A DNA stretch of 43,711 bases from positions 1 through 43,711 of the forward strand of contig CAYZQL010000002.1 in the NCBI GenBank assembly GCA_964480555.1, read 5' to 3'. Origin of the DNA: an uncultured Lentisphaeraceae bacterium. GTDB taxonomy: Bacteria > Verrucomicrobiota > Kiritimatiellia > RFP12 > UBA1067. A program made the translations under genes and the position numbers. This document shows positions 2,718 through 40,400 of this stretch, in pieces. The first letter of the stretch is position 1; each line of letters starts with the position of its first letter. The notes under the pieces were generated by a model. The model was given only the letters and a program-made list of their open reading frames with translations, was not told where the DNA came from and did not search any database.

Positions 2718-2791
2718 ATACGAAGTAACGCAAGGTGTCGTTCCTCGCTGAAGAGCATCCAACGACGAACAAAGAGAGAGGCGACCAACCA

Positions 2792-6974: not shown

Positions 6975-7005
6975 GGACCGAACAACGACAAGAGGAGTGC
7001 GTCAA

Positions 7006-9225: not shown

Positions 9226-9266
9226 TATAACTCACGAGGGATTTCTCATTACTAAGGAGCCGATAG

Positions 9267-10784: not shown

Positions 10785-10799
10785 AACGGAGAAATCGTC

Positions 10800-12158: not shown

Positions 12159-12372
12159 AATGCAATTGATGCAGCGGGAAAGTGTCTGTCTGATGACAAA
12201 CGTTTTTGTTTCCGCGCTGGCGGCACTATCGCTGGCGGCAAATTGGATGAGCGGTCGCTCCACGGCACGGCCAGATTCATATGCATGGCGAAGCCCGTGA
12301 GGGCCTGCCCCTGCAGCAGAAGCAGGCCGCCGAGCCAAAGCGCCCGTTTCATTGTTTGTCGCGTTCAGCCGA

Positions 12373-17493: not shown

Positions 17494-17502
17494 GTCGTTT
17501 TT

Positions 17503-20974: not shown

Positions 20975-23062
20975 TTATTGGAGCATAACCGTCGTGCCCG
21001 GCGGCGCGGGAACTTTCGTCAGCACAATTTTCTTTCCTACAACGCTCACCGCGCAGCCGGCGGGTTTGGTCTCAACGGTCATGGCGGCCAGATTCGCGGT
21101 CAGCGACTCGCCCGCCGAGAGCAGCGGGACGGAAACAGTTCCGACCACGCCCGCCTGCTGGAGTTTTCTGGCGTCGACGATCAATTTGGTTGCGTCTCTC
21201 AGATACGCTTTGAAATTGACGGTCATCGGCGCGAAGTTGGTCGTGTCCACGCGAAACTCCAAGGCCGACGTCGCGTTGGTCAGAATCAGCTGCCCCACGA
21301 AAACCGTGTTGCTGTCGCCCAGCATCCGAATTCTTCCGCCGTAGCCGACAGTGCAATAGTTGTACTGATCTCCGTGGAACGTCGAATTCTCGATCGACAG
21401 CACATTGTTGGAGGCGGTGCTGGAATAACCGATATACGTCGCGCGCGGAATCGTCATGGAGCTGCCGTCCTCGAGCGAGATCCAATTGTTGGGGCCGCCG
21501 TAGCCCAAATCCAAATCGTACTGCGTGCTGGTATAGGTCGAGCGGACCAGTCGGACGAAGTTATTCGACGAGTTCGCACTGTAACCAAGGTACAGATGGC
21601 CGCGCGCGGCGATCGTACTGTTCGACGCCACAATCGCGTTGTCGAACGTCCCCGACATGTAGCCGACGTACAAATAATAAGCTGCCAGCGTCGCGCCTTT
21701 CTCGAGGAAAATCCGATTTCTCTGACCGCGCTTGCCGACATAAGTCGCATCGTTAGCGTTTGCCCCTTTGTTGGAAGCAACCGATCCGGAGCCAGCCACG
21801 AAAAGCGTGTTCGACGACGCCCATCCAGTCGAGGTGTCGTTCTCTCCTCCGACAAAGATTGATCGATTGGCAAAAGCAAGGCCGCCGTTGGTGACGATCA
21901 TCGTGTTGCAGTGACCTTGGGCACCCACCGCAATATCATACATCCGCACGTTCAGTTGCGACCCGAGCCCCGAAATAAGCGTCGCGTTGTCGGTGGAATT
22001 GCTGGTCACGCCCATTCGGAAATGGCCGCTGACACTCAGAACGCCGCCGTTGACCACTTCGATCCGATTGCTGTCGGCCGTGTTGGCGCCCAAACCAAAC
22101 GAGGTGCCCGTCTGATTGGTCATCACGCCGCCGTCGATCCTCATTTTGCTGAAACTCCCGTCCACGCCGATTCCCACCGCATTGCTCACCACGAACGTCC
22201 CCCCGCTGAGAACCTCCAGCGTGTTGCCGACGGCCGTGGCGTTCCTACCCAAATAAAGCGAGTAGCAGTTGACAAGACCGCCCGCATAGACCAGCCCGCC
22301 GTTCGTCACCGTCAGCGTGTTGCCGGAGCCGTCCCGTCCGATGGCGACGGCGGCGGCCGACCCGTTGTTCTCCACGCCGGCCGCATAGAGCAGAGAATGG
22401 GTCCCGCTGACCAGAACCGTGTTGTTCGAGGCGCTCGCGGCGTCCCCGCCGACATAGACGCCGCGCGACGACAGCACGGTGCCGCCGTTGGTGACGACCA
22501 GACGGTTGCCGTAACCGGCTTTGCCGACCCAGACATCCCACGCTTGGTTGGAAACGACCGTCCCCGCCCCCGACACGGACAAGGTCAAGTCGTGGTTCGT
22601 CGCGCTGGACGCCAAACACAGATGTTTGCCCGCCATCCAGGCGCCGCCCCCGGTCACGTCAAGGGTGGACAAAGCGCCCGGAAAGTTGATGTACGAATCC
22701 GCCCCCGCAGGCAGCAGAGTCCAGAGTGTCCCCGGCGAAATGTTCAGTGTCAGCTGTCGGTCCGAGGGAAAAGCGAACGCGTGCGAACTGCTGTTCGCGA
22801 CCGTCGTCGCGCCGTTCGTTATCTGCACCGCGTATGAACCGCCCGCCGGAAAACTGGAAACCGGGAAGGCAACGGAATCCGCTGCGCCGGGCACCGCACC
22901 GGCCGCCGATCCGCCTTCCGTCAGGGACCAGTTCCGGCCATCGTCGAAATAGCCCCCGGACGAGTTAACCCAGTAGTAGTTCGTTGCGGCGCTTTGTCTG
23001 GCACATCCCAGAAAAAGAATCGCCGCAACCACCCGCACCGCGCTTACGTTCCTTCTGTTCAT
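20975..23062 (-). CDS. Secreted beta-helical repeat protein C (T5SS/PEP-CTERM-associated-repeat-like) with a C-terminal GTTVMLQ tail
   Basis: AAGGAG lies 8 nt upstream of the ATG. The signal peptide is MNRRNVSAVRVVAAILFLGCA. The N-terminal motif is ATNYYWVNSSGGYFDDGRNWSL. Regular rungs follow: LVVTNGGTVLSSRGVYVGGDAASASNNTVLVSG, LTVTNGGLVYAGGLVNCYSLYLG, IEVVNGGVLSVSGHFRMG, MIVTNGGLAFANRSIFVGG. The C-terminus is KIVLTKVPAPPGTTVMLQ. Confidence 0.8.
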   Translation of the reverse strand: MNRRNVSAVRVVAAILFLGCARQSAATNYYWVNSSGGYFDDGRNWSLTEGGSAAGAVPGAADSVAFPVSSFPAGGSYAVQITNGATTVANSSSHAFAFPSDRQLTLNISPGTLWTLLPAGADSYINFPGALSTLDVTGGGAWMAGKHLCLASSATNHDLTLSVSGAGTVVSNQAWDVWVGKAGYGNRLVVTNGGTVLSSRGVYVGGDAASASNNTVLVSGTHSLLYAAGVENNGSAAAVAIGRDGSGNTLTVTNGGLVYAGGLVNCYSLYLGRNATAVGNTLEVLSGGTFVVSNAVGIGVDGSFSKMRIDGGVMTNQTGTSFGLGANTADSNRIEVVNGGVLSVSGHFRMGVTSNSTDNATLISGLGSQLNVRMYDIAVGAQGHCNTMIVTNGGLAFANRSIFVGGENDTSTGWASSNTLFVAGSGSVASNKGANANDATYVGKRGQRNRIFLEKGATLAAYYLYVGYMSGTFDNAIVASNSTIAARGHLYLGYSANSSNNFVRLVRSTYTSTQYDLDLGYGGPNNWISLEDGSSMTIPRATYIGYSSTASNNVLSIENSTFHGDQYNYCTVGYGGRIRMLGDSNTVFVGQLILTNATSALEFRVDTTNFAPMTVNFKAYLRDATKLIVDARKLQQAGVVGTVSVPLLSAGESLTANLAAMTVETKPAGCAVSVVGKKIVLTKVPAPPGTTVMLQ

Positions 23063-25305: not shown

Positions 25306-27222
25306 TTATTCTTTGTCGAGCCCGGCAGGGAAGACGCAGATGACCCCGTTGGAGTCGTTGCCCCCGTCGCTGCGGACATCCGCCCGGAGCGTGAAGACCG
25401 CGCCGACTTTGCAGGCGGGAACGTTGATCGCGTAGTCGAAAATGGCGGGATTGGCCCCTGCCGTGCCGGACTTCTGATCCTTGCCTAGCTCTACACCGTT
25501 CTCCAGCAGCGCAACGTTCCGCATCATGAGCCGGTGCTTGCCGCGCAGGTAGATGAAGCGAAGCGTATAGGCTCCTGCCTCCTGAATCCCCTTCGTGATG
25601 TCCCATTCGCGCACAGTCCAATCCTCGCCCTGCTCGCCGGTCTTCCACTCGGCCACCGGGCGGTACCACGCCGGCTCTCCTAAGCGGGCCACGTTCAGCC
25701 CCATCTGCTTCAGCCGTGCGCAGACTTCGGGCGCGCGCCGCTCGAAGCTTGTCCACGACACCTTCGCCTCCGGCGACCACGCCCGCTCCGCGATCGCGGC
25801 GGCGCGCGGGAAAAGCTTCCACTCGGCGTCCGCGCCGTTGTAACAGGACTCGCCCCAAAGGTTGCCCTGTATCCCCAGGACATGCTTCTGCTTTTCCGCC
25901 GGGATGCCCTCGACGGGGTTGAACGAGAGGATACGCTCGCAGGAGTTGACCCGCACCCGGAAATAGGCGAAGCCGTCCGGCGCGGCCGTCTGCGGGTAGT
26001 CGAGGTACAGGTAGGTCGTGGGCGACATCACCACATCGTGCCCCATCGCGGCCGCGGCCTGCCCGCCTTTGACGCCGCGCCAGGACATCACGGTCGCACC
26101 CGGCGCGAGCCCGCCTTCGAGGATCTCGTCCCAGCCGATCAGCCGGCGCCCCCGCTTCGCCAGATACCGGTCGAAATGGCGGACCATCCAGCTCTGCAGC
26201 TCGTGCTCGTCCTTCAGCCCGTGCGTGGCTTTGCGGGCCTGGCATTTCGCACAGGCCTTCCAGATATTTTTCGGACACTCGTCGCCGCCGATGTGGATGA
26301 AGGGGCTGTCGAACAGAACCAGCACCTCGTCGAGCACACCCTCCAGGAAACGGAGAACCTCGTCGTTGCCCGCGCAGTACATGAACTCCGGCTTGCCCGT
26401 GCAGCTCAGGTGCGGATAGGCCCTCATCGCGGCGGTGGCGTGCGCCGGCAGCTCGATCTCCGGTATCACCATGATGTGCCGGGCGCGCGCGTAGTCGAGG
26501 ATCTCGCGGATGTCGGCCTGCGTGTAAAACCGCGCCGGCCGTTTCGGATCGGAGTTGTCGCCGACGGCGCCGACCGTCGTGAGTTCGGGAAACCGCTTGA
26601 GCTCCAGGCGCCAGCCCGTCGAGTCGGTGAGGTGCCAGTGGAACCGGTTGAGCTTGAGCGACGCCATGCCGTCCAGGATCTTCAGCACGGTCGCTTTGCC
26701 GAGAAAGTGCCGGGCCTCGTCGATCATCACCCCGCGCCAGCCGAAGCGCGGCGCGTCGCGGATTTCCACGCACGGAAGGCTCTTCCCTTCCGCCGTCACC
26801 AGTTGACGGAGAGTCTGGGCACCATAAAAGAGCCCTGCCGCATCGGAAGCCGCAAGACGGATACGGTCGGGTGTGACCCGCAGCAGGTACCCTTCGGGCG
26901 GGAGGGCATCGTTCGGTGCCGCACCCTCCAGCGTGATCTCTCCAGTCACGGGTGGCTGACCTGCCGCCCCCGCACGCAACACGGGCAGCGGCAGCCCGGT
27001 TGACGCGCGCCAGACCGCCGCGAGAGAACGCGCCGCCGCCTCTCCTCCCGGCGCGGCCGGCGCGTATACGCACACCGTCGTCCCGACGAGCGGAAACACT
27101 CCGGGATTCTCCTTCACATCGGCGGGTTCGGGACAAAGCGCGGACAACGCCGCCGCTGCGCTCAGCGCGCCGAGACAAAGCGAGAGCCGAACTGTGGTGA
27201 GAGCGATACAGGCTGTTTTCAT
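25306..27222 (-). CDS. Secreted GH20 beta-N-acetylhexosaminidase with a C-terminal accessory beta-sandwich-like domain
   Basis: I prefer the ATG at 27222 (GGAG lies 5 nt upstream), giving the signal peptide MKTACIALTTVRLSLCLGALSAAAALSA. The listed start at 27363 would translate the palindromic repeat element. GH20 signatures are RFGWRGVMIDEARHF, LNRFHWHLTDSTGWRLE, HIGGDECPK and GIQGNLWGE. Confidence 0.9.
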   Translation of the reverse strand: MKTACIALTTVRLSLCLGALSAAAALSALCPEPADVKENPGVFPLVGTTVCVYAPAAPGGEAAARSLAAVWRASTGLPLPVLRAGAAGQPPVTGEITLEGAAPNDALPPEGYLLRVTPDRIRLAASDAAGLFYGAQTLRQLVTAEGKSLPCVEIRDAPRFGWRGVMIDEARHFLGKATVLKILDGMASLKLNRFHWHLTDSTGWRLELKRFPELTTVGAVGDNSDPKRPARFYTQADIREILDYARARHIMVIPEIELPAHATAAMRAYPHLSCTGKPEFMYCAGNDEVLRFLEGVLDEVLVLFDSPFIHIGGDECPKNIWKACAKCQARKATHGLKDEHELQSWMVRHFDRYLAKRGRRLIGWDEILEGGLAPGATVMSWRGVKGGQAAAAMGHDVVMSPTTYLYLDYPQTAAPDGFAYFRVRVNSCERILSFNPVEGIPAEKQKHVLGIQGNLWGESCYNGADAEWKLFPRAAAIAERAWSPEAKVSWTSFERRAPEVCARLKQMGLNVARLGEPAWYRPVAEWKTGEQGEDWTVREWDITKGIQEAGAYTLRFIYLRGKHRLMMRNVALLENGVELGKDQKSGTAGANPAIFDYAINVPACKVGAVFTLRADVRSDGGNDSNGVICVFPAGLDKE

Positions 27223-27255
27223 AAAAACTCCGTGTGTGTTCAGGCGACAGGTTAT

Positions 27256-27322
27256 GGTAGGGACGCCTCCCCGAGGCGTCCGCGGAGACACGCCTCGGAC
27301 GGCTCGGGGAGCCGTCCCTACC
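27256..27322 (-). repeat. Nested-palindrome (REP-like) intergenic element, copy 1
   Basis: The sequence is GGTAGGGACGCCTCCCCGAGGCGTCCGC-ggagacacgcctc-GGACGGCTCGGGGAGCCGTCCCTACC. It contains two 9-bp-stem hairpins (27261-27281 and 27297-27317) closed by GGTAG/CTACC. It starts 14 nt downstream of the LamG-1 stop and ends 33 nt upstream of the GH20 start. A second copy lies at 41413-41489. Confidence 0.6.
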
Positions 27323-27335
27323 GGATAATGACCGT

Positions 27336-30300
27336 TCAGCGCATCAACATCAAGGTTCCCCAACGGTTATAACTGGTGAAGCTTTCGTTCTCCGCCTGCG
27401 TCATGTAGGCGGCGCGGATCCAGTCCGCGCCGCGCGGCACGGTTTCGAGGCGCACCTCGTCCAGCACGCCCGCGAAGGTCTTGGTCGCGTCCGCGTCGCT
27501 GCCCGCATGGCCGAAAGTGAGCGCCTGATTGGTCGGGAGGCCGGCGGCCAGCGCGTCGGGCACCGTGGTCAGCGGCTGTCCGTTGCCGTAGGCCTGCACG
27601 CTCCCCGAGGGATTGACCGCCACGGCGTAGTGGGTCCAGGCTCCGGTGGAGGGCGCGACCAGCGACGCCGCGTCCGCGGCCGCCACCTTCAGCTTGCCGG
27701 CCGCGTTGTTCAGCGTCGCGTACGCCACCGCGCCCGTGCCCGCCAGCACGACCGCCTGGTCCGCGACCGGCGCCTGCTGCTTCGCCCAGAACGAGAAGGT
27801 CTGCGGCCCGGCGGCCGGTTGCGCCCGGGTCCGCACGCGTTGCGCGACCTCCGACCACGCCAGCCCCTCGCCCGCCAGCGCCGCGGCCGCCGCGGGCGCG
27901 GCCTGACCGAGCAGCGCCGCGCCGTTCTGCGCGGCCGAGGCGTCGGCCAGCAGCAGGCGGTCCGTGCCCGTGAAGTGCCACACGCCGCCGAACCCGCCCG
28001 ACCAGACGCGCGCGTTGGACGTGTCCACCGGAATCGCGTAGCGCGCGGACAGATAGGCCTCGATGCGGCGGCGCTCGGTGTCCGAGATGAGCCGGTCATA
28101 GACCAGCACCTCGGCGAGGTCGCCGTCCAGCGGCAGGTCCAGTGCGCCGTCCGAGGTGCCCGCGCCGAAAATGATCACGCTGTCGTTGACGCCGGTTAGG
28201 CCCCAGAGCCCGGCAGGCGCGGTGCTCTGGGTCAGGTTGACGCCGTTGACGTAGAAGCGCGAGGACAGCTCGTCGCACAGCATCGTCGCGATGACCGGCA
28301 CGTTGGTCTGGCACGGCAGAAGCTGGGACACCACGCCGTTGGCACGACGCGTAATCAAACCGTTGGTCACGCTGAGGCGGCTGCTGCTGTTGGCACCCTG
28401 CATGACGACCCGTTCGCTGGCATCGGCCGCGCGCGTGCTGAATACCGCGACTGCGGAATAGGCCTTGCCGATGGGCGAGGCAAGACTCTTCAGGCTGTCG
28501 TACTGGCCCGCGACAGCATCGAAGCGCAGCGCGGGCTTGCTGTTGAAGGAGGCGCCGACTTTCTCGGGCATACGGTTGGTGACGGGCTGCGTGGCATTCA
28601 TCCCGGCGGTGTCGGTCTGATTCTCGCACTTGGAGACGCGCGGGGTCGTGCCGTCCAGGATATCGGCGACCATGTAGTCGCCGCGCAACCACTGGCGCAG
28701 GCCGACCGCAGGCACACGGTGGGCCGAGAGGGCGTCGTATTTCAGCGCCAGATAGCGCTCGACCTGTTGCCGTTCCGTGTATGACAGGGCGCGGTCGTAA
28801 GCGATCACCTCCAGCACGTCGCCGGCCCAGCCGTCGCCGCTGGTGCCGCTGGCGCCCAAGCCGAGAATGTTGGGGCCCAAGTGGACGGCAACCGAAGGAT
28901 AGGCGAAGCCGTTGAGGCTGGCCTGGGTATTGGTGCCGTCGCCGATTATCCCCGCCACGAACGGCCTGCCGACAGGAGGGCGGAGATCGGGGGTTGCGAG
29001 CGTCGTATAGCCGCCCGGCCTGGCCGTAAAGAGAAAGAACTTGCCGGCACCTTCGATGGCGACGCCGCAGTTGTAGCCGGCCGAGCCTTGGACGATGCGC
29101 CGCCAGTTGTACCCTCCCGAGTTCATGAGAAACGTTCCGGCCACGAAATAGGAGTACGGCGTGTTGGTCGCGCTCCAGCCCGTGACCATGCCGTCCTTGG
29201 GAACGATCGCCTCGAAGCGCACAGCGGGCAGGCCGTTCACCGCGTTGGCCATCCACACCGGCTGCATGGCGGCATTGCCTTGCGTCGCGTTGCGCCCGTT
29301 GCCGGACTGGTCGGCCCACGTCGAGACGTAGCCCGAGCCATTGGTGGCGACGCCCGCGCCCGCGTGCAGCCACAGGCCGCAGTTCGGCAGATCGGTCGGC
29401 ACGAACGGGTTCGCGTCAGCCGCCCGGGCGGGGTTCTTCCAGTAGGCCGTGATCTGCGTGTTCCGCACGAGGGCCGGCACCTGCACCCACACATGCGACT
29501 CGCCGTTGGTGTTCCAGGTCTCGGTCTCGTGCTGAAGCACGGCTCCGTCCTCGCCGGTGAAGAGCAGGTCCGCGCCGCCCGCCAGGCAGTCGCGGTAGCG
29601 GAAGCGACCGTTGCCGCACCCGTCCCAAAGCTTGACCAGCGCGGGGAAGTTGGTGAGCGCCGAAGAGCCGGCGTACCCGCCGAAGCGGATCGGCATGGAG
29701 CGCTGCCACGTGCCCAGCGCCGCCGGAGGCTCCTTGTAAAGAACGATGGCGTTGCCCTCGCGCACCGCCCGGTACGGGCAGGGCGCCTCGATCTCCCAGC
29801 CGGAGAGGTCGGTCGCGCCGGTCATGGAGGTCGCCTCGATGATGCGGAGCGAATCGGGGCAGGCCGCGGCCGAGGCGGCCACAAGCTCGACGGTCATGAA
29901 GCCGGGCACTGCGAGAGCGGCATTGACCTTGACGCTGTCGTTGGTGACGGCGTTCACTTGGCAGCGCAGGCGAACGCCGCTGAGGCCAGGCGCCGTGCCG
30001 TAGGTGAGGCAGCCGAAGCCGTCGTTGGCCGAGGGGTCGCCGGGCGCGATGACCGCGCCCGGATATTGCAGGACCGCCCCTGCCGAGGTCACCAGCCCCG
30101 TGCCGCCTAGAGTGCCGCCCGGCATGACCCTGACCTGGCCGGCGCCGAGGCAGCCGGCCGAGGTGCCGTTGGCCAAGGCCGTGCCGCCCTCGATGGTGCA
30201 GGTGCCGGCGTAGGCGCTTGGCTGCGTGAAGGCCCAGACGCCACCCTTGACGGTGACGAACAGCGAGTTGGCGCCGCCGGGCGCGTTGGCGAGCGGCGTG

Positions 30301-31820
30301 TTCAGCGTGTTGACGCCCGCGGAGGTGCCGCCCAGCGAGAGGTAGGCGGGGCCCGCGCCGGGCGTGTCGGCAGCGGCCCACGCGCCGTTGAAGGTCAGGC
30401 CCGCGCCAGCGGGGCTGTTATTCTCGACCGAGCAAAGACGGACAAAGGAGAACGGCCGGTCCGTGGCGGCGGCTTCGGCGCCCACATAGCGGAATCCGCC
30501 GCTGAAGCTGAAACGGCGGTTGCCGAGCAGCACAACGGCATCGTTGCCGGAGGCCGCGCCAAGCGAACTGGGCTGGCCCGCATTCGCCAGGCGCATGATT
30601 TCAGCGGTGCCGGTTTTCAGGACAACGGGGCCGGTGAAGGTGTTAGACGGGCAGGCGAGGGCGAGCGTGCCGGCGAAATCCAGACCCATGCCCAACATGA
30701 TTCCGCCTTCGCCCGAGAGCAGGCCAGAGAGCGTCAGACGCCTGGCCGTGAGCACAGAGAAGGTGTGCGTCCCAACGGGCAACGCGGTGTCCAAGCCCCA
30801 AGTCACCGCCGAAGCGGGGTTGCAGAAGAAGCCGTTGTTCAGGGTCACGGGGTTGCCGGAGAACTGCCAGGCTTGATCCCAGACCATGACACTGTCGAGC
30901 GTCAACCCGGTGAGGTCGTTGGTCGAGACCGTCCGGGCAATGCCATTAAAGGCGAGCATCGGCGCGGCGGGCATGGCCTGCTGCCAGTTGGCGCTGTCGC
31001 TCCAGAGGCCGCTCGACCCCGAACCGCTCCAGACCGGGCCGTCGAAGCCCTCGGCCGTCACGCCGTACCGTGCGGCCAGGTAATCCTCCACCTGCTGTCT
31101 TTCGGTTGTCGTCAGGGCGCGCTCGTAGGCGATCACCTCGGAGATCTGCGCTTCCCCCTCGTCATTGTAGCCGTCAACGCTGCCGATGCTCAGCCGGCCG
31201 GGCGGCATCTTGGCGGTGGGGTTGCCGGTGAGGTCGCGGCCGTTCACAAAAAAGAGCTGATTCGTCGTGGTGGTCACCGCCGAAAGCATGTAGGTGCGGT
31301 TGAAACGATATGCGGATTTTAGCCTCGTGATGTTTCCGCTTAATTCGCCGCTGCCGCCATGCGCGTAGAAGGTTCCGGGCGTGGAGGTTCCGAGGAACCA
31401 GTTCTTGTCGCGCGAGCCCAGAAGGCGGCGCCAAGTGATGCCGAGCTCGTTCCCGTCGAGCACCCGCGCCACAATATAGGTGGTGCAGGCGTTGGTGAGC
31501 GGGGTTCCGGTCAGCAGCCTTGCGTTGTACCCGTTGTTGTAGTTCCGCATGTCGAAATAGACGGTCGGAAGGCCGTTGGGCCCGCTTTCCTGATATAAGG
31601 GCTGACGGTTGACTTCGTTGGTCTGATACGCATGGTTGCCGCTGCCCGACAGATCGGTCCATTGCGACACCCGGCCCGCGCTGTTATTGGTCTGAATATT
31701 GGCCTCGCCTGCCTGCAGCCACATCACGCAGCCCGTCAGATTCGTAGGTTCGAAAGCCTCCGCATCTGGAGACCCAAGAACAGACGCTAAAAGGACCGAA
31801 AGCGTTATCATTCGTCTCAT
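27336..31820 (-). CDS. Giant secreted LamG / PATR beta-strand-repeat / DUF2341 surface protein 1 (about 1,494 aa) with a C-terminal GTLMLMR tail
   Basis: I prefer the ATG at 31820 (AAGGAA upstream), giving the signal peptide MRRMITLSVLLASVLGSPDAEA. The first LamG-type domain begins FEPTNLTGCVMWLQAG...VSQWTDLSGSGNHAYQ. PATR-like repeats include GGIMLGMGLDFAGTLALACPSNTFTGPVVLKTGTAEI. The DUF2341-like block is LTNFPALVKLWDGCGNGRFRYRDCLAGGADLLFTGEDGAVLQHETETWNTNGESHVWVQVPAL. Three more LamG domains follow, and the first three LamG domains each end in a linker like EVIAYDRALSYTERQQVERYLALKYD. Confidence 0.85.
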   Translation of the reverse strand: MRRMITLSVLLASVLGSPDAEAFEPTNLTGCVMWLQAGEANIQTNNSAGRVSQWTDLSGSGNHAYQTNEVNRQPLYQESGPNGLPTVYFDMRNYNNGYNARLLTGTPLTNACTTYIVARVLDGNELGITWRRLLGSRDKNWFLGTSTPGTFYAHGGSGELSGNITRLKSAYRFNRTYMLSAVTTTTNQLFFVNGRDLTGNPTAKMPPGRLSIGSVDGYNDEGEAQISEVIAYERALTTTERQQVEDYLAARYGVTAEGFDGPVWSGSGSSGLWSDSANWQQAMPAAPMLAFNGIARTVSTNDLTGLTLDSVMVWDQAWQFSGNPVTLNNGFFCNPASAVTWGLDTALPVGTHTFSVLTARRLTLSGLLSGEGGIMLGMGLDFAGTLALACPSNTFTGPVVLKTGTAEIMRLANAGQPSSLGAASGNDAVVLLGNRRFSFSGGFRYVGAEAAATDRPFSFVRLCSVENNSPAGAGLTFNGAWAAADTPGAGPAYLSLGGTSAGVNTLNTPLANAPGGANSLFVTVKGGVWAFTQPSAYAGTCTIEGGTALANGTSAGCLGAGQVRVMPGGTLGGTGLVTSAGAVLQYPGAVIAPGDPSANDGFGCLTYGTAPGLSGVRLRCQVNAVTNDSVKVNAALAVPGFMTVELVAASAAACPDSLRIIEATSMTGATDLSGWEIEAPCPYRAVREGNAIVLYKEPPAALGTWQRSMPIRFGGYAGSSALTNFPALVKLWDGCGNGRFRYRDCLAGGADLLFTGEDGAVLQHETETWNTNGESHVWVQVPALVRNTQITAYWKNPARAADANPFVPTDLPNCGLWLHAGAGVATNGSGYVSTWADQSGNGRNATQGNAAMQPVWMANAVNGLPAVRFEAIVPKDGMVTGWSATNTPYSYFVAGTFLMNSGGYNWRRIVQGSAGYNCGVAIEGAGKFFLFTARPGGYTTLATPDLRPPVGRPFVAGIIGDGTNTQASLNGFAYPSVAVHLGPNILGLGASGTSGDGWAGDVLEVIAYDRALSYTERQQVERYLALKYDALSAHRVPAVGLRQWLRGDYMVADILDGTTPRVSKCENQTDTAGMNATQPVTNRMPEKVGASFNSKPALRFDAVAGQYDSLKSLASPIGKAYSAVAVFSTRAADASERVVMQGANSSSRLSVTNGLITRRANGVVSQLLPCQTNVPVIATMLCDELSSRFYVNGVNLTQSTAPAGLWGLTGVNDSVIIFGAGTSDGALDLPLDGDLAEVLVYDRLISDTERRRIEAYLSARYAIPVDTSNARVWSGGFGGVWHFTGTDRLLLADASAAQNGAALLGQAAPAAAAALAGEGLAWSEVAQRVRTRAQPAAGPQTFSFWAKQQAPVADQAVVLAGTGAVAYATLNNAAGKLKVAAADAASLVAPSTGAWTHYAVAVNPSGSVQAYGNGQPLTTVPDALAAGLPTNQALTFGHAGSDADATKTFAGVLDEVRLETVPRGADWIRAAYMTQAENESFTSYNRWGTLMLMR
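27341..27992. repeat. 652-nt near-perfect direct repeat, copy 1 (3' end of the LamG-1 gene)
   Basis: By base-by-base comparison it is identical to 31967-32618 (offset 4626) except at 27974 (A) versus 32600 (G). The ORF track shows identical protein and identical shadow ORFs over both copies. Confidence 0.95.
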
Positions 31821-31961
31821 GATTGTATTCCTTAGGTGCCTTACAAACCAATACCAGCAACAAAAACACGTTGCCTCATACAACGGCAAGGGGTTTTGTG
31901 TCATAGACCTCTTCGTGTCCTCGGTGAACTTCGTGTGAGGATTTCGCCGGCGCGCGCACGC

Positions 31962-34900
31962 TCACTGCATCAACATCAAGGTTCCCCAACGGTTATAACT
32001 GGTGAAGCTTTCGTTCTCCGCCTGCGTCATGTAGGCGGCGCGGATCCAGTCCGCGCCGCGCGGCACGGTTTCGAGGCGCACCTCGTCCAGCACGCCCGCG
32101 AAGGTCTTGGTCGCGTCCGCGTCGCTGCCCGCATGGCCGAAAGTGAGCGCCTGATTGGTCGGGAGGCCGGCGGCCAGCGCGTCGGGCACCGTGGTCAGCG
32201 GCTGTCCGTTGCCGTAGGCCTGCACGCTCCCCGAGGGATTGACCGCCACGGCGTAGTGGGTCCAGGCTCCGGTGGAGGGCGCGACCAGCGACGCCGCGTC
32301 CGCGGCCGCCACCTTCAGCTTGCCGGCCGCGTTGTTCAGCGTCGCGTACGCCACCGCGCCCGTGCCCGCCAGCACGACCGCCTGGTCCGCGACCGGCGCC
32401 TGCTGCTTCGCCCAGAACGAGAAGGTCTGCGGCCCGGCGGCCGGTTGCGCCCGGGTCCGCACGCGTTGCGCGACCTCCGACCACGCCAGCCCCTCGCCCG
32501 CCAGCGCCGCGGCCGCCGCGGGCGCGGCCTGACCGAGCAGCGCCGCGCCGTTCTGCGCGGCCGAGGCGTCGGCCAGCAGCAGGCGGTCCGTGCCCGTGAG
32601 GTGCCACACGCCGCCGAATTCGGATGACCACACCGCGGGGTTCACCCGGGCCATGGGGATCGCGTAGCGCGCGGAGAGGTAGGCCTCGACGCGGCGGCGC
32701 TCGTTGTCCGAGATCAGCCGGTCATAGACCATCACCTCGGCGAGGTCGCCGTCCAGCGGCAGATTGAGTGCGCTGTCGCCGGTGCCCGCGCCGAGATAGA
32801 AGACACTGCTGCCGGCACCGACTTTCCAGAGTCCTACCGGCGCACCGCTCTGAGTCAGGTTGACGCCGTTGAGATAGAACCTGGATGTCTGCGCGTCACA
32901 GGTCATGACCGCGATGGCCGCCTGATTCGTCTGCGCCGGCGCGAACTGCGACACCACGCCGGAGGCCTGCCGCAGGATCAGCCCGTTGGTGACGCTGAGA
33001 CGGCTGGTGGCGCCGGCACCCTGCAGGACAACCCGTTCCGTCCCGTCGGACGCCCGCGGCGCGAAGACCGCCACCACGGAGTAGGTCGTGTCCAGCGCCA
33101 CCAAGGTGGCCTTCATGCTGTCGTACTCGCCCGCCACGGCGTCGAACCGCAGGACCGGCTTGCCGTTGAGCGCCCCGGCGATTTTTTCGGGCATACGGTT
33201 GGTGGTGCTTTGCAGGGCGTGAACGCTGTTCCCGTATTGCGTCTGGTTGTCCCAGCGTTTGACCCGGTTTACCGCGCCGTCGGCGACGTCGGCGACCGCG
33301 TCTTCGGAACGCAGCCACTGGACCAGGCCTGCGGAGGGCACCCGATGGGCGGAGCGCATGTCGTACTTCAGCGCGAGGTAGCGCTCCACCTGCCGCCGCT
33401 CCTCGAACCCCAGCGCGCGGCTGTAGACGATGACCTCGAAAATATGGCCCAGCCACGGGTTGCTGCTGACGCCGCCGTGACCCAGAATCAGCGTGCCGGG
33501 TCCGTGGTGCTTGGCGAGCGGCGTGAACCCGAAGCCGTTCAGCGTGAACTGCGTGTTCGTGCCGTCACCCAGGATCGCCGCCACGAACGGCACGCCGCCC
33601 ACGGGACGGATCCCCGTGTTCGCGATCGCATAAAATCCACTCCCGCCCGCACCGGTGGGGATGAAGGGGTAGAAATCCCCCCCCGACCCGTTCAGCTCGA
33701 CACCCCAGTTGTAATTGGCCGGGCCGGTCATGATCCGGTACCAGCTATACGTCGTGCTCTCCTGATAACTGGCAGTCACAAAAACCGAGTAGGTGCCGTT
33801 GCTGGTGCCCCAGGTCGTGGTCAACCCGTCTTTGTAGGCCCCCCCCTCGAAGCGCAGACCGGGCAGGCCGTTGACCACGTTGTTGGTCAGGCAGGGCTGA
33901 TACCGGGAATCGCTCCGCACGGCCTCATGCCCGTTGCCCGACTGGTCGGCCCAGCGCGAGACAAGCCCGGCGCCGTCGGCCGTCACACCCGCGCCGGCGT
34001 GCAGCCACATGGCGCAGCCCGTCAGGTCGGTCGGCAGGAAAGGATTCGCGTCCGTCGCGCGGGCCGGGTTTTTCCAGTGCGCGGTGATCTCGGTGTTGTG
34101 GACCAGCAGCGGCACCCGTACCCAGACGTGCGACTCGCCGTTGGTGTTCCAGGTTTCGATCTCGTGATCCAGCCACGCGCCCGCCTCATCGGTGAAGAGC
34201 AGGTCCGCCCCGTCGGCCAGGCAGTCGGCGTACCGGAAGCGGCCGTTGCCGCACCCGTCCCACAGTTTGATCAGCGCCGGGAAGTTGGTGAGTTCCGCAT
34301 GGCCGTCGTACCCGCTGAACCGCACCGGCATGGAGCGCTGCCACGCGGCCAAGTGCGGCGGCGGCTCTTTCACGAGCACCACGGCGTTGCCCTCCACCAC
34401 GGCGCGGTAGGCGCACGGCGCCTCGATGTCCCAGCCGGAGAGGTCCACGCTGCCGGTCAGGGAGACCGCCTTGACGATTGTGAGCCGGTCCGGGCACGCC
34501 TCTTCGGAATCGGCCTCGACGCGCACGGTCATGAAGCCGGGCGGCGACCAGGCGGTTTCGATGAGGATCAAGTCATTCGTCTGAGCCGTGGTCTGGCAGC
34601 GCAGCTCCATGCCGTTCAGCACCGGCGCGGCGGAGAAGGTCAGCGTGCCGATGCCGTCCTCCACGTCCGGATTGCCCGGAACCAGGACCGCCCCGGGCAT
34701 CAGGCTCAACGAGGCATAGCCGGCCAGCCGGCCCGTGCCGCCCAAAACGCCGCCCGCTTTGATCGTCACCGTACCCGCGCCCAGATAACCCGAGGTCGTG
34801 CCCCCGACGAGCACGCTGCCGCCCTCGACCGTCAGTCCTCCGGTGAACGTGTTTGCCGAGGAAAAGGCCCAGACGCCGCCGGTGATCTTCACAATCAGAC

Positions 34901-36464
34901 TATTCGCGCCGCCGGGCGCGTTGGCGATCACGCCGTTGACCGTGTTGACGCCCTTCGAGGTCCCGGCCAGCGTAAGGGTCGCCGGACCGATCCCGGCCGC
35001 GTCCATGGCCGACCAGTTGCCGTTGAACGTCAGGCCCGCGCCGGCCGGGCTCGCGTTCACGATCGCCATGTCGCGCAGGAAAAGAAAAGGCCGGTCTGTC
35101 GCGGACGGTTCCGTGCCGACATACCGGAGCGTGGCCGGGATCCCGCTGCCGAGGTTGCCGAGCCGCACCGCGGCGCTCCCGCCGCTCGCCGCGCCCAGCG
35201 AACTGGCCTCGCCCGCATCGCCGAGGCGGGTGATCTCCGTTGTCCCGCACTTGAGCAGCGTCTGACCCGTGAAGGTGTTGGTCGGGCAGGAGAGCTTCAG
35301 GGTTCCGCCATAACCGGCGCCCAACCCCGCCGTCAGCCCGCCCGCGCCTGAAAGCCGGCCCGCGAGATTCAGCCGTCCTCCGGTCTTCACGGAAAAAAAG
35401 TGGCCCCCCTCCGGCAAAGCCGTGTCCAGTTCCCAATCCACCGTGCCCGCGGTGAAACTCATGAAATCGCTTTTCAGGGAAACGGGGTTGCCGGAATACC
35501 TCCAGGTCGAATCCCAAACCGTCACATGCGCGAGCGTCAGCCCGGTCAAGTCATTGGTCGACGTGCGCTTCACGCCGTTGTTGAAGACCAGCGCAGGCTC
35601 CGCCGGCATCGCCTGGGCCCAGTTGTTCGTGTTGCCCCAGAGGCTATCCGCGCCCGCGCCGCTCCAGACCGGACCGTAAAATCCCTCGTCCGTCACGCCA
35701 TACCGTCCGGCCAGATACGTCTCGACCTCTTCGCGCTCCAGCGCGGTCAGGGCGCGGTCATAGGCGATCACCTCCGAAATCAGCGCGTCGCTGGGGTCGG
35801 CCGAGGTGTTGCCCGCGCCGCCGATGGTCAGGCGCCCCGGCGCCAAGGTGCGCTCGGGAGATCCGGTGAGGTCGAAGCCGTTCACAAAGAAACGCTGTTC
35901 CGTCATCGTGTTCACGGCGGAGAGCGTGTAGGTGCGGTTGAAGGTGAACACGGACTTGAAGCGCGTGACGGTTCCGCTCAGCTCGCCGTTCGAATGCGCA
36001 AAGAAGGAGCCGCCGTCCGTATACGTCCCCAGCATCCAGTTCGCGTCGCGCGCCGGCAGAATGCGTCGCCACGTGAAGCCGCGCTCACTGGCGTCCACCA
36101 CCCGCGCCACGACAAAGACCGAATAGGAGTTCGTCAGGTAGTTGGTGGTGAGCAGGCCGGCCGCGTAGGCGTCGCTGCCGTTGCGGCGGTCGAAAAAGAG
36201 CGTCGGCTGGCCGCCGGGACCCTCCGCCTGATAAAGCGGCTGGCGGTTGGCATCGGTCTGGTAGGCGTGGTTGCCGTTGCCCGACAGGTCGCTCCACTGC
36301 GACACGCGGCCCGCCACAGTGTTCGTCACGATGGCCGCCTGAGACGCCTGCAGCCACATCACGCAGCCGGTCAGGTTCGTGGGCTCGAACGCGCCGGCGT
36401 CCTCCGCCCGGAAAAAACCGCACAGACAAACAGACAGAAAAGCGCCGACAACCCTTCGTTTCAT
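31962..36464 (-). CDS. Giant secreted LamG / PATR / DUF2341 surface protein 2 (about 1,500 aa, tandem paralog) with a C-terminal GTLMLMQ tail
   Basis: I prefer the ATG at 36464 (GGAAGG lies 9 nt upstream), giving the signal peptide MKRRVVGAFLSVCLCGFFRAEDAGA. The domain order matches 27336-31820: FEPTNLTGCVMWLQAS...; GGLTAGLGAGYGGTLKLSCPTNTFTGQTLLKCGTTEI; LTNFPALIKLWDGCGNGRFRYADCLADGADLLFTDEAGAWLDHEIETWNTNGESHVWVRVPLL. The same linkers recur: EVIAYDRALTALEREEVETYLAGRYG, EVIVYSRALGFEERRQVERYLALKYD, AEVMVYDRLISDNERRRVEAYLSARYAIP. Confidence 0.85.
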   Translation of the reverse strand: MKRRVVGAFLSVCLCGFFRAEDAGAFEPTNLTGCVMWLQASQAAIVTNTVAGRVSQWSDLSGNGNHAYQTDANRQPLYQAEGPGGQPTLFFDRRNGSDAYAAGLLTTNYLTNSYSVFVVARVVDASERGFTWRRILPARDANWMLGTYTDGGSFFAHSNGELSGTVTRFKSVFTFNRTYTLSAVNTMTEQRFFVNGFDLTGSPERTLAPGRLTIGGAGNTSADPSDALISEVIAYDRALTALEREEVETYLAGRYGVTDEGFYGPVWSGAGADSLWGNTNNWAQAMPAEPALVFNNGVKRTSTNDLTGLTLAHVTVWDSTWRYSGNPVSLKSDFMSFTAGTVDWELDTALPEGGHFFSVKTGGRLNLAGRLSGAGGLTAGLGAGYGGTLKLSCPTNTFTGQTLLKCGTTEITRLGDAGEASSLGAASGGSAAVRLGNLGSGIPATLRYVGTEPSATDRPFLFLRDMAIVNASPAGAGLTFNGNWSAMDAAGIGPATLTLAGTSKGVNTVNGVIANAPGGANSLIVKITGGVWAFSSANTFTGGLTVEGGSVLVGGTTSGYLGAGTVTIKAGGVLGGTGRLAGYASLSLMPGAVLVPGNPDVEDGIGTLTFSAAPVLNGMELRCQTTAQTNDLILIETAWSPPGFMTVRVEADSEEACPDRLTIVKAVSLTGSVDLSGWDIEAPCAYRAVVEGNAVVLVKEPPPHLAAWQRSMPVRFSGYDGHAELTNFPALIKLWDGCGNGRFRYADCLADGADLLFTDEAGAWLDHEIETWNTNGESHVWVRVPLLVHNTEITAHWKNPARATDANPFLPTDLTGCAMWLHAGAGVTADGAGLVSRWADQSGNGHEAVRSDSRYQPCLTNNVVNGLPGLRFEGGAYKDGLTTTWGTSNGTYSVFVTASYQESTTYSWYRIMTGPANYNWGVELNGSGGDFYPFIPTGAGGSGFYAIANTGIRPVGGVPFVAAILGDGTNTQFTLNGFGFTPLAKHHGPGTLILGHGGVSSNPWLGHIFEVIVYSRALGFEERRQVERYLALKYDMRSAHRVPSAGLVQWLRSEDAVADVADGAVNRVKRWDNQTQYGNSVHALQSTTNRMPEKIAGALNGKPVLRFDAVAGEYDSMKATLVALDTTYSVVAVFAPRASDGTERVVLQGAGATSRLSVTNGLILRQASGVVSQFAPAQTNQAAIAVMTCDAQTSRFYLNGVNLTQSGAPVGLWKVGAGSSVFYLGAGTGDSALNLPLDGDLAEVMVYDRLISDNERRRVEAYLSARYAIPMARVNPAVWSSEFGGVWHLTGTDRLLLADASAAQNGAALLGQAAPAAAAALAGEGLAWSEVAQRVRTRAQPAAGPQTFSFWAKQQAPVADQAVVLAGTGAVAYATLNNAAGKLKVAAADAASLVAPSTGAWTHYAVAVNPSGSVQAYGNGQPLTTVPDALAAGLPTNQALTFGHAGSDADATKTFAGVLDEVRLETVPRGADWIRAAYMTQAENESFTSYNRWGTLMLMQ
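31967..32618. repeat. 652-nt near-perfect direct repeat, copy 2 (3' end of the LamG-2 gene)
   Basis: See 27341-27992. There is one mismatch (32600). Identity ends at the last sense codon on one side and at ...gccgccgaa on the other. Confidence 0.95.
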
Positions 36465-36500
36465 AAACCACATCCTTCCATGCCTGCGAGTTCTTTGAAT

Positions 36501-36517
36501 AAACATCTACTATGTTT
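36501..36517. promoter_or_regulatory. AT-rich palindrome AAACAT-N5-ATGTTT upstream of LamG-2 (candidate operator or promoter element)
   Basis: This is a perfect 6-bp inverted repeat in an otherwise GC-rich divergent intergenic region, 37-53 nt upstream of the ATG at 36464. There is no further support. Confidence 0.2.
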
Positions 36518-36763: not shown

Positions 36764-37327
36764 ATGAAGCCTCTGACCCGCCTGTTGACTGTGACCGTCT
36801 TGTGTGTTGCCGGCGCGACGTCCGGCCAGCAGAACGGGGACGCCGCCCCGCGTCACCCGCGCACCATCAACCGCGGCAACTGGGTCGGCAAGCGGGTGCT
36901 GACCAAGGAGTTCATGGAGAAGGTCGGCATCCAGGGCGAACAGGCCGAAAAGATCAAGACCGAACTCTCCGCGCTCGAAGCCAAATCCCTAAAGCTTGAG
37001 GAGAGCATCAACCAAGAGGCCTTGAAGCAGGCCGAGCTCGCCAAAAAGGTCCTCGACGAGCCCGGCGCGAGCGTCGACGAGATCATGCGCATCATCGAGC
37101 GCATCGGCCAGCACCGCACGGAGCAGGCCAAGCTGGCCATGCGGCTGATGCTGGTCATCCGCGACAACCTGACCGCCGACCAGCGCAAAAAAGCCTCGGA
37201 GCTGCTGGCCTCCGAGGGCAAGCGGCGCATCGAAGAGCGCGCGGCCGAGCGCGCGGCCCGCGAGGCGCGCGAGAAAAACGAGCGCCCCGCCGACAAGAAA
37301 CGCCCCGCTGCCCCGCAGGGCTGGTAA
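36764..37327 (+). CDS. Periplasmic Spy/CpxP-family-like (LTXXQ motif) coiled-coil protein
   Basis: AAGGAG lies upstream of the ATG. The signal peptide is MKPLTRLLTVTVLCVAGATSG. The body is helical and rich in K, E, A and Q. An LTXXQ motif occurs in IRDNLTADQRKKASELL, and the C-terminus is a basic tail. Confidence 0.55.
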   Translation: MKPLTRLLTVTVLCVAGATSGQQNGDAAPRHPRTINRGNWVGKRVLTKEFMEKVGIQGEQAEKIKTELSALEAKSLKLEESINQEALKQAELAKKVLDEPGASVDEIMRIIERIGQHRTEQAKLAMRLMLVIRDNLTADQRKKASELLASEGKRRIEERAAERAAREAREKNERPADKKRPAAPQGW

Positions 37328-37365
37328 GACGAGCGCACTTTTTTTCGTCCCGCCACGCTTAACGG

Positions 37366-37395
37366 TTGTCTAACACCGCAGACCCGCCGTATAAT
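37366..37395 (+). promoter_or_regulatory. Candidate sigma70-type promoter for the SNF2/SWIM pair (would give a near-leaderless mRNA)
   Basis: TTGTCT (37366-37371), an 18-nt spacer, then a perfect TATAAT (37390-37395) only 12 nt before the ATG at 37408. This is a sequence match only. Confidence 0.3.
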
Positions 37396-37407
37396 AAGCG
37401 GTTGGCG

Positions 37408-40400
37408 ATGATTATTCTGCACACATGCTGGCGTGAAGGGTTCCTTTACGTTTGGGGCGAACAGGAGGCCTTTGAGGCTCTGTCGGCAGATGCGGAGTCC
37501 TTCGCCGGCCGCTCGCCTTTCGACGCCGGCCCGGAACGGCTCTGCTTGCTTCTGAAGCGGTTGCTCTGGGAAGAGGCGGACGAGCTGGACCGGGCGCCGC
37601 TCGCCTTGGACCTCCCCTCCCGCCGCAGCGCCGCCGGCGTGCGGCCCCTGCCCTCGCACCCTTTTCTCTGCGACGGCGAGGAGGATAGCGGCGACGGCGT
37701 CCCCTTCCTGCACCCGTGGCACGTCACCGCCGTCAAGCTCCCGTGGAAAGCGGCCCTCGCGCTCTTGGGGCTCACGCAGGAGCGGCGCCTCGCCGAAGAT
37801 GTTTTTGCCGCGGAGGACCTGCTCAGCTTCGCCGTGCTCTACCGGTACACCGGCGCGCTGGTGGCGCGGGGCCGTTTCCTGCCGGCCCTGCGCCAGGCGA
37901 CGCCGGCCGCTTACGAGGCCTGCTGGCGGCCGACGCTCGAAGGCGCGGAGCGGCAGCGCCTGTGCGCGCTCGCGGCGCGCATCCCGCCCGCCGCCACGTG
38001 CGGCCAGAAGCCGCTGCGCGTCGCGGAGGCCCTGCTGGAGGAGCTGACCGACCGCCTCGTGCGCTTCAGCGTGTGCACCACCCTTTCGCGCGCCCAGGCC
38101 GAGCACGGCAAGTATTACAGCGTTCACGACGCCTGGTTCTCCGCCCTGCGCGGGGAGTCGCGGGCCGTGCGCTGGGGCGAGGGCGAGGAGCTTGAGGCGC
38201 TGCGGACGAGCCTGCGCCAGTGGCGGCGGCCGGTGGAAGGCGGCGGCACGGACGGCGCGTCCCTGCTCTTTCAGCTCGATGCGCCGGCCGCTCCCGAAAC
38301 GGCCTGGTTTCTCCAGGTGCGGCTGGCCGACGCGGCCGGCTCCTACGCCTTTCCCGCGGATATCGGGGCCCTGGCCGATAGCGGGCCGCACCTCAGCGAG
38401 CGCCTGCTCGTGTCGCTCGGCCAGGCGGCGCTGCTTTTTCCGCCGCTCGAGCACGCCGAGCCGCACGCCGCAGGGTTCGGCTGCGCGCTGGCCCCGCAGG
38501 AGGCGCACGCGTTCCTGACCGTCGCCGCCGCGATGCTGGAGGCCTCCGGGTACCGCGTCCTTCTGCCGCCGCAGTGGCTTCAGGGCTCGGCCTCCATGAT
38601 CGCCTTGGAGGCGGACGCCCAGCCCCAGCCTGCGCCGGGGGACGCGGCGCACACGCTGGACGAGAAGGTGGAGGTCACCTGGTCGGTGACGCTCAACGGC
38701 GAACGGCTCTCCGGCGAGGAGCTGGAAGAGTTGCTGCAGGCGCCGACGCCGCTGGTCTTTTTCCGCGGGCAGTGGCTGCGGGTCGATGTGAAGCGCATCC
38801 GCGACGCGCTGCGGGTCTGGCAGCGGAGCACCGCCGAGACGCAGACGGCGCGGGAGGTGGTCCGGCTGGCGATCGGGACCGCGGAGGGCCAGCACGGCCT
38901 GGAGGTGGCGCAGGTGCGGGGCGGCGGCTGGCTGGCGCCCTTCCTCAAGCGGCTCTCCGGCGAGCAGCCCTTCGAAACGCTGCCTGCGCCCGAAGCCTTC
39001 CGCGGCGAGCTGCGCCCTTACCAGCTGCGCGGGTTCAGCTGGCTGGTGTTCCTGCGGACGTGGGGCTTCGGCGCCTGCCTGGCCGACGACATGGGCCTCG
39101 GCAAAACCATTCAGGCGCTGGCCTTCTTCCTGCACGAGAAGGCGCGGGGCGAGCGCCGCCCGCTGCTGCTGGCCGGGCCGATGTCCGTGCTCGGCAACTG
39201 GCTGCGCGAGGCGCAGCGCTTCGCGCCGAGCCTGCGCTTCCTGCTGCACCACGGGGCCGAGCGGCGCCACGGGGAGGCCTTCACGCGCGAGGCGCGGCAG
39301 GCCGACGTGGTGGTCACCAGCTACCACCTGCTGTACCGCGATTACGCCGACCTGCGCAAGGTCGGCTGGGCCGGCCTCGTGCTCGACGAGGCGCAGAACA
39401 TCAAAAACCCGGACACGCGCCAGGCCCAGGCCGCCCGCGCGCTGCAGGCAGACTACCGCATCGCGCTCACCGGCACGCCGATGGAGAACCACGTGGGCGA
39501 GCTGTGGTCCATCATGGACTTTCTCAACTCCGGCATGCTGGGCAAGCGCGCGGTGTTCCGCGAGACCTTTTTCCGCCCCATCCAGTCGGGCACGGACCCC
39601 GGCGCGCGCACGCGTTTGCGGCGCGTCACCGCCCCCTTCATCCTGCGCCGACTGAAAACCGACCGGCTGGTCATCGCCGACCTCCCCGAAAAGGTGGAGG
39701 GCAAGGTGTATTGCCCGCTGACCCTCGAGCAGGCGCGCCTGTACGAGGAGGAGCTCGAGGCCTTCCGGCGCGACGTCGAGACGAGCGAGGGAATCTCCCG
39801 GCGCGGCCGGATCCTGGCGGTCCTGACGCGGCTGAAGCAGGTGTGCAACCACCCGGCGCACTACCTCGGCCAGACGCAGGCGCTGGCCAAGCGATCCGGC
39901 AAGCTCGCGCGCCTCGAAGAGATGCTCGAAGAGGTCTTCGCGCGGGGCGAGAGCGCGCTGGTGTTCACGCAGTACGCGGAGATGGGCAAGCTGCTCAAGC
40001 GGCACCTCTGCCAGACCTTCGCCTGCGACATGCCGTTCCTGCACGGAGGCGTCCCGCGCCACGAGCGCGACCGCCTGGTGCAGACGTTTCAGGAGGGGGC
40101 GCAGCCGCAGGCGTTCATCCTTTCGCTCAAGGCCGGCGGCACCGGCCTGAACCTGACCCGGGCCAGCCACGTGTTCCACTACGACCGCTGGTGGAATCCG
40201 GCGGTGGAAGACCAGGCCACGGACCGCGCGTTCCGCATCGGCCAGACCCGCAACGTGATGGTCCATAAGTTCATCTGCGGCGGCACGCTGGAGGACCGCA
40301 TCGACGCGCTGATCGAGAGCAAGACCGCCCTGGCCTCAGAAATCGTCACGAGCGGCGAGGCCTCCCTCACGGAGCTCTCGAACGCCGAGCTGCACGACAT

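Follow-up and report, generated by a model that had tools for sequence, protein, structure and literature searches.

Non-reciprocal homologous copying keeps same-genome paralogues identical while orthologues diverge, as at tufA/tufB and in rRNA operons. At the paralogous Helicobacter pylori surface-protein loci babA/babB and homA/homB, the 3' segment is most similar within a strain, whereas the 5' and middle segments follow strain-independent allelic groups (PMC3960876); this pattern has been attributed to RecA-dependent intragenomic recombination (PMC3960876, citing Pride & Blaser 2002), and chimeric genes and changes in copy number and locus occur (PMC3960876). For mycobacteria, gene conversion and rearrangement between copies are reported for duplicated PE_PGRS and antigen genes (PMC1762029, PMC13061034). 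Here we analyse two adjacent genes, A and B, that lie on a 43,711-nucleotide (nt) contig of an uncultured Kiritimatiellae bacterium (CAYZQL010000002.1; hereafter "the window", meaning the whole stretch of DNA at its full length). A and B are old tandem paralogues encoding secreted giant multi-LamG proteins in a glycan-degradation cluster; the last 652 nt or so of each gene, encoding the C-terminal LamG domain (hereafter "the module"), are nearly identical, and the remainder of each gene (hereafter "the body") is strongly diverged. The best explanation, in which we have high confidence, is that homologous gene conversion has acted repeatedly, so that the 3' module evolves in concert.

The babA/babB and homA/homB pairs are the closest known parallel: there, as in the window, paralogous surface-protein genes display a conflict between body and 3' module. 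The H. pylori loci are dispersed, whereas the window genes are adjacent and in tandem; the homogenised part in H. pylori is the C-terminal segment of an outer-membrane protein, whereas in the window it is a soluble-type Laminin_G_3 domain; and H. pylori is a pathogen, whereas the host of the window is an environmental or digester glycan degrader. The mycobacterial cases are reported to share with the window a high GC content and the adjacency of duplicated genes whose products are secreted or surface-located, and they differ from it in protein family and in coming from complete isolate genomes. With tufA/tufB and rRNA operons, whole genes are homogenised and their products are equivalent, whereas in the window one domain of approximately seven is homogenised. 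The window case thus stands apart in the tandem arrangement of its genes, in the LamG domain as the homogenised unit, and in its environmental glycan-degrader host.

A 652-nt identity tract with sharp boundaries

An earlier reading of the window made from the sequence alone (the sequence-only reading) had described a 652-nt tract common to A and B at an offset of 4626, with a single mismatch, sharply defined edges, and a diverged remainder on the 5' side, and alignment of the two genes bears out every one of these details. The two copies of the tract match at 651 of 652 nt and include an exact run of 633 nt (27341-27973 in A), vs. 30 nt for the longest exact run outside the tract. In the remainder, A and B agree at 2564 of 3816 aligned nt (67.2%), with 59.6% identity at the amino-acid level and 42 gapped nt columns; both of the peptide strings that the sequence-only reading had quoted are found in A and B. 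Identity over the tract cannot be due to chance. The identity profile along the genes, which the sequence-only reading had proposed as a check, is thus far from 100% outside the tract, and a recent whole-gene tandem duplication is ruled out, both by this divergence and by the deep position of the B-type clade in the tree of bodies described below.

The two ends of the tract are of different kinds. On the 5' side (in gene orientation), mismatches begin at 27993 and are dense to 28032, that is, through a hypervariable inter-domain linker that reads PVDTSNARVWSGG vs. PMARVNPAVWSSE, with A retaining the A-type linker and B retaining the B-type linker. The sole mismatch inside the tract (Table 1) falls at a first codon position, exchanges F and L, and immediately follows the FGGVWH codons; conversion probably began, on the 5' side, at this very position, as the next 18 nt encode the FGGVWH motif that is invariant in the family. 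On the 3' side, the edge is the last sense codon, CGC vs. CAG, which is followed in both genes by a common TGA stop.

The tract is present also in an independent assembly. Contig L007 (JGI, Ga0209066_10004140; L numbers denote related contigs and P numbers family proteins) is 99.67% identical, without gaps, to positions 43711-31967 of the window (11,745 nt); it holds the B body joined to the same module, with 3 single-nucleotide polymorphisms (SNPs) in the latter, and it ends exactly at 31967, the last base common to A and B. Assemblers stop in this way at the fork of a repeat, which implies that the module has two different continuations in the L007 sample too.

A diversity-generating retroelement was considered as a source of the pattern and rejected: copies made by such elements span approximately 100-150 nt and carry many differences at adenine positions, whereas the tract spans 652 nt with a single T/C difference. 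A reverse transcriptase domain is not among the Pfam matches of the large open reading frames (ORFs) of the window, small ORFs not having been scanned.

Conflicting phylogenies of body and module

Approximately 25 full-length relatives, all of them from Kiritimatiellae-type metagenome-assembled genomes (MAGs) and metagenome contigs, sort by body into an A-type group and a B-type group, with the B-type clade branching deep. Quartet analyses with five pairs of orthologues give opposite topologies for the two parts of the genes: for the body, ((A,A-orthologue),(B,B-orthologue)) is recovered in 1000 of 1000 bootstraps, and for the module, ((A,B),(orthologues)) is recovered in 990-1000 of 1000. Neighbour-joining trees of body and module agree with the quartets, and a sliding scan along the genes identifies the module as the sole segment in which A and B resemble each other more than they resemble their own orthologues. 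Raised identity between A and B at amino acids (aa) 720-810 and at 28033-28250, just upstream of the tract, was considered as a trace of older conversion and rejected: in neither region do A and B resemble each other more than they resemble all orthologues, the raised identity is explained by conservation common to all members, and quartets for the region before the module follow orthology.

The synonymous sites point in the same direction as the trees. Among module codons that specify the same residue, none differs between A and B, vs. 12-43% in comparisons with orthologous modules; synonymous sites are therefore unconstrained and the DNA is free to change. Since synonymous identity is found only within this genome, selection on protein or DNA cannot explain the tract, and copying can. 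The sequence-only reading had argued that selection on the protein could not account for synonymous identity and had proposed recent gene conversion, or concerted evolution, of the C-terminal LamG module; the first argument holds, as synonymous sites change freely from genome to genome yet agree between the two copies here, and the proposal is upheld by the opposite topologies of body and module, by the synonymous sites, and by recurrence of the pattern in relatives. The further expectation that the module would be homogenised within genomes and diverged between them agrees with the comparison of related genomes, a second lineage included.

Homogenisation of the same region is seen in three further settings. 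In L087, a B-type gene lies downstream of an A-type gene (P0013) and breaks off with the contig at ...FGGVW; its final 195 nt show 2 mismatches relative to the A-type neighbour, and the sequence upstream is approximately 70% identical. In the lineage of L005 and L088, where an A-type gene, the B-type gene P0023, and a GH20 gene follow one another and the B-type fragment of L005 is 99.8% identical to P0023, the nt identity between the A-type gene of L005 and the B-type gene of L088 is approximately 0.65 before codon ~1230 (approximately 0.45-0.5 at third positions) and 0.91-0.96 over the rest of the gene (0.85-0.95 at third positions), with a dip at codons 1330-1370; such a profile suggests a homogenisation that is older or composite and has its 5' boundary further upstream. 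In L006, a sister lineage of the window with an A gene and a B gene that are 92.8% and 84.8% identical in nt to the window genes, the B gene turns from B-like to A-like approximately 110-140 nt upstream of the window breakpoint and bears an A-type linker. From the homogenised tracts of L087, L005/L088, and L006 it follows that the C-terminal region has been homogenised several times, with different tract ends.

The order of the genes differs between relatives. The order B, A, GH20 is present in the window (25306-36506) and in L006; the order A-type, B-type, GH20 is present in L088 (1-4975), L005 (1311-7620), and L087 (2559-10820); in L084, a B-type gene lies immediately upstream of GH20; and L083, L085, and L086 carry singletons in unrelated contexts. 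The beginning of L084 was checked for the end of an upstream module, and none was found. Judged from these gene orders and from L084, the array has evidently been rearranged between lineages.

Probable gene conversion and its rivals

According to the proposed mechanism, one of the two genes would have acquired the segment encoding the last LamG domain (~633-652 nt) from its paralogue very recently and non-reciprocally, by a homologous gene conversion that presumably depended on RecA, the conversion patch arising through heteroduplex formation or through repair of a double-strand break from the paralogous template. The tract stops on the 5' side where homology collapses, at the hypervariable linker before the domain, and on the 3' side at the last codon, the flanks past this point being unrelated; its coincidence with a domain would follow from these two limits, divergence of the linker and lack of homology in the 3' flanks. 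Identical copies would favour further exchange, making homogenisation self-reinforcing, and the 3' region has been homogenised repeatedly, with varying end points, in related lineages; evolution is thus concerted for the C-terminal module and divergent for the N-terminal bodies. A common C-terminal domain may also be favoured by selection.

One rival, which we consider very unlikely, is reciprocal recombination, in the form either of a recent unequal crossover or duplication-deletion cycle in a larger array or of replacement of both modules by DNA imported from another strain. Exchange of this kind would fit the opposite gene orders (window and L006 vs. L088, L005, and L087) and the B-type gene beside GH20 in L084, and it would fit the mosaic structure of the orthologues and the SNP clusters relative to L007, which point to recombination between strains. 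A single unequal crossover in the module, however, yields a deletion or a triplication, not two diverged bodies carrying identical, bounded modules; a segment bounded on both sides in each gene is what characterises a conversion patch, which amounts to a double crossover; and if one foreign module had entered both genes, two import events would have been needed.

Two sets of observations concern the recombination between strains that this rival invokes. In the family alignment, P0018 is 94% identical to B over aa 1-330 and 72% identical over aa 880-1230, and P0002 is 67% identical to A over aa 1-330 and 90% identical over aa 880-1230; such strong mosaicism of orthologues suggests frequent between-strain recombination along these genes. 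The 39 SNPs that distinguish the window from L007 are clustered, at 33567-33752 (16 SNPs), 34155-34355, and 42833-42920, an arrangement typical of imported recombination patches. Copying of the cluster at 33567-33752, in the B body, from A was considered and rejected, as its bases do not track A; between-strain recombination is the more likely source of this cluster.

Very unlikely is an assembly artefact, in which an assembler would have placed the C-terminal sequence of one copy on both genes through repeat collapse or strain mixing. The window is a metagenome-type contig, all relatives come from MAGs or metagenome contigs, an exact repeat of 633 nt exceeds the length of short reads, and the junction of the A body with the module comes from a single assembly. 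Against this, an assembler needs reads across each of the two unique-to-repeat junctions, and these junctions keep the reading frame and agree with the orthologues; the window is without any N; L007 joins the B body to the same module and stops precisely at the fork; L087 likewise ends within a near-identical tract common to its upstream paralogue; and partial homogenisation of the same region is seen in assemblies from other pipelines. L006, in which a B-type gene is followed by an A-type gene, gives independent support for the adjacency of B and A, and in L015, L056, and L017 an A-type gene is followed by GH20. L006 and L007 both bear on the physical existence of the copies.

Selection at the nucleotide level, in which an embedded RNA element or an overlapping gene would keep the tracts identical without copying, has a negligible probability: long, spurious-looking ORFs do run over the tract (27367-27981 on the minus strand and 27507-28199 on the plus strand), but overlapping ORFs are expected at 64% GC, same-residue codons differ among orthologous modules to the extent given above, and the module phylogeny tracks lineage, not constraint.

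Gene conversion itself has several points to contend with. The junction of the A body with the module is known from the window contig alone, and assemblies are the source both for how many copies there are and for the exact sequence of each. For the second lineage, the comparison of a full A-type module with a full B-type module mixes samples, in which the B-type N-termini are 99.8% identical. The timing of the transfer depends on a single site: A and B differ in the tract at 1 site, at its edge, vs. 3 sites for the B genes of window and L007 (32392, 32391, and 32142, where the coding strand of L007 has C, G, and C, respectively), and one derived base is common to both window copies (27516/32142; Table 1), which suggests that the copying took place after the split from the 99.67%-identical strain represented by L007. 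The direction of transfer is ambiguous. The first two thirds of the module are nearer to B-type orthologues (0.85 vs. 0.64-0.75), and the A-type genes closest in body to A (those of L013, P0003/L056, and P0004) bear quite different modules; the divergence between the window module and that of the L006 B gene, 7.2%, equals the divergence of the A bodies (7.2%), not that of the B bodies (15.2%), and, together with the A-type linker in the L006 B gene, would fit an origin of the module in A.

As a by-product, gene conversion would leave 652-nt direct repeats 4626 nt apart that are able to mediate deletion or amplification of one gene. Given this repeat geometry, loop-out of one gene, which the sequence-only reading had raised, is plausible as a 4626-bp deletion; a B-type gene lies immediately upstream of GH20 in the related contig L084, and no deletion allele of the window strain was observed. 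A more far-reaching proposal, which we regard as unlikely, is that the 3' LamG module is a built-in recombination handle that reshuffles, deletes, amplifies, and reorders variable glycan-binding bodies before GH20. If so, the handle would constitute a switch resembling phase or antigenic variation in a free-living polysaccharide degrader, and the opposite gene orders and the lone B-type gene before GH20 would be its footprints.

We conclude that the locus is a genuine, if unremarkable, instance of conversion between paralogous genes, by a known mechanism, solid and unsurprising. It is a clean, comparatively supported case of domain-limited concerted evolution in an uncultured bacterium of the PVC group; it indicates that evolution is mosaic in the giant LamG proteins encoded by the glycan-degradation clusters of Kiritimatiellae, and that phylogenies and orthology calls for giant LamG genes are needed per domain. 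Exact intragenic repeats of this kind also break short-read assemblies predictably, the contigs of two relatives ending at or within the tract.

Domain architecture and neighbourhood of A and B

From N- to C-terminus, A comprises a signal-peptide-like N-terminus, three related LamG-like modules, a middle part resembling beta-strand repeats and DUF2341, and a fourth LamG at the C-terminus, and the order in B is the same. The signal-peptide-like segment that opens both proteins was read directly from the sequence. Family hidden Markov models (HMMs) place the three mutually related LamG-like modules at ORF residues 43-299, 829-1057, and 1086-1303 and show the fourth, C-terminal LamG to be more divergent than the other three. 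Each of the three related modules is terminated by the conserved motif EVIAYDRALS..ERQQVE.YLA.KYG; the triplication is far older than the split of A and B, and it accounts for the direct-repeat families D4 and D5 (spacing ~2.3 kb). The ORF of A is extendable to 31904 (27336-31904) and that of B to 36506 (31962-36506). To judge from the hairpin and T-run in the spacer (Table 1), B and A may be separate transcription units.

Table 1. Coordinates of the features discussed, in window positions
Feature	Coordinates	Strand	Remarks
Gene A (P0001)	27336-31820	minus	1494 aa; likely start ATG at 31820, after AAGGAA ribosome-binding site
Gene B, paralogue of A	31962-36464	minus	1500 aa from MKRRVV; likely start 36464
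B-A intergenic spacer	31821-31961 (141 nt)	minus	terminator-like hairpin and T-run at 31885-31869; AAGGAA before A start
Identity tract, A copy	27341-27992	minus	FGGVWH codons, whole fourth LamG, and tail to first base of last codon
Identity tract, B copy	31967-32618	minus	offset 4626 from A copy
Sole mismatch in tract	27974 (pairs with 32600)	minus	A vs. G; coding strand T in A (Phe), C in B (Leu)
Hypervariable inter-domain linker, A	27993-28032 (40 nt; pairs with 32619-32658 in B)	minus	5' limit of tract
Derived base common to both window copies	27516 (pairs with 32142)	minus	coding T in A and B; C in L007 and five outgroup modules
GH20 hexosaminidase	25306-27222	minus	conserved downstream neighbour of A/B family; likely start M at 27222

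The sequence-only reading had labelled the two genes LamG/PATR/DUF2341, and these labels stand to different degrees. LamG is strong in both proteins: Laminin_G_3 (PF13385) matches with E-values of 4e-24 and 5.5e-28 and scores of 85.9 and 98.4 bits vs. a cut-off of 27.6 (A and B, respectively), the best stretch being 1365-1496 in A and 1357-1488 in B. PATR passes a cut-off in B only, with the NCBIfam beta-strand repeat TIGR02601 (25.2 bits vs. a cut-off of 19.85), which is the sole match in the NCBIfam scan of A and B; the Pfam PATR score, 18.4, is under the cut-off of 27. DUF2341 (PF10102) is sub-threshold in both, at 17.6 bits (A) and 19.6 bits (B) vs. the Pfam cut-off of 23.4, and PF10102 is among the precomputed Pfam domains of the orthologues P0005, P0012, P0018, and P0021. 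An autotransporter barrel domain was not detected in A or B in the Pfam and NCBIfam scans.

With the 218-aa module as query, exhaustive phmmer over 1.8 billion cluster representatives retrieves a single representative (one 50%-identity cluster) of the A/B family; the remaining matches are generic LamG units, at most 36% identical and mostly internal, in giant multi-LamG proteins. These generic units cover module residues ~1-210 and end short of the last ~8 residues; the tract therefore corresponds to one complete LamG unit plus a tail of ~8 residues, and the assignment of the tract to the fourth LamG and the C-terminal tail is borne out by Pfam, the family HMMs, and phmmer alike. The suggested role of the module in docking to a shared partner or to sorting machinery gains no support from the same search, which finds the module in the A/B family only and otherwise generic Laminin_G_3. 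When the 218-aa module by itself was used in a word-indexed search, the yield was only 2 short fragments and even the known family was not recovered, probably through alanine richness, and a PDB sequence search with A returned no match. An AlphaFold2 prediction of the module from a 14-sequence family alignment (mean pLDDT 48, pTM 0.52) was too poor for a fold search.

Besides the GH20 directly downstream of A, the surrounding cluster encodes two AraC/periplasmic-binding regulators, a beta-helix protein, a FecR-like protein, two GH42-like proteins, and GH71, one copy of which is fused to an FGE-sulfatase domain. The mechanically called ORF of the GH20 (25306-27363) enters the 3' end of A and the tract by 28 nt; comparison with L088 indicates that the true start is probably Met 27222, with no true overlap with A. 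Other tandem paralogue pairs in the window, at 14-2653, 4359-9225, and 13948-20970, are the AraC/periplasmic-binding regulators, GH71, and the GH42-like proteins, with aa identities of 35%, 24%, and 25%, and a high-identity tract is absent from these pairs. The large ORFs at 36853-40266, 9252-12632, 20975-23062, and 2735-4342 (1137, 1126, 695, and 535 aa) have no Pfam match, and the first three have no NCBIfam match either; the 1137-aa protein is 99.56% conserved in L007.

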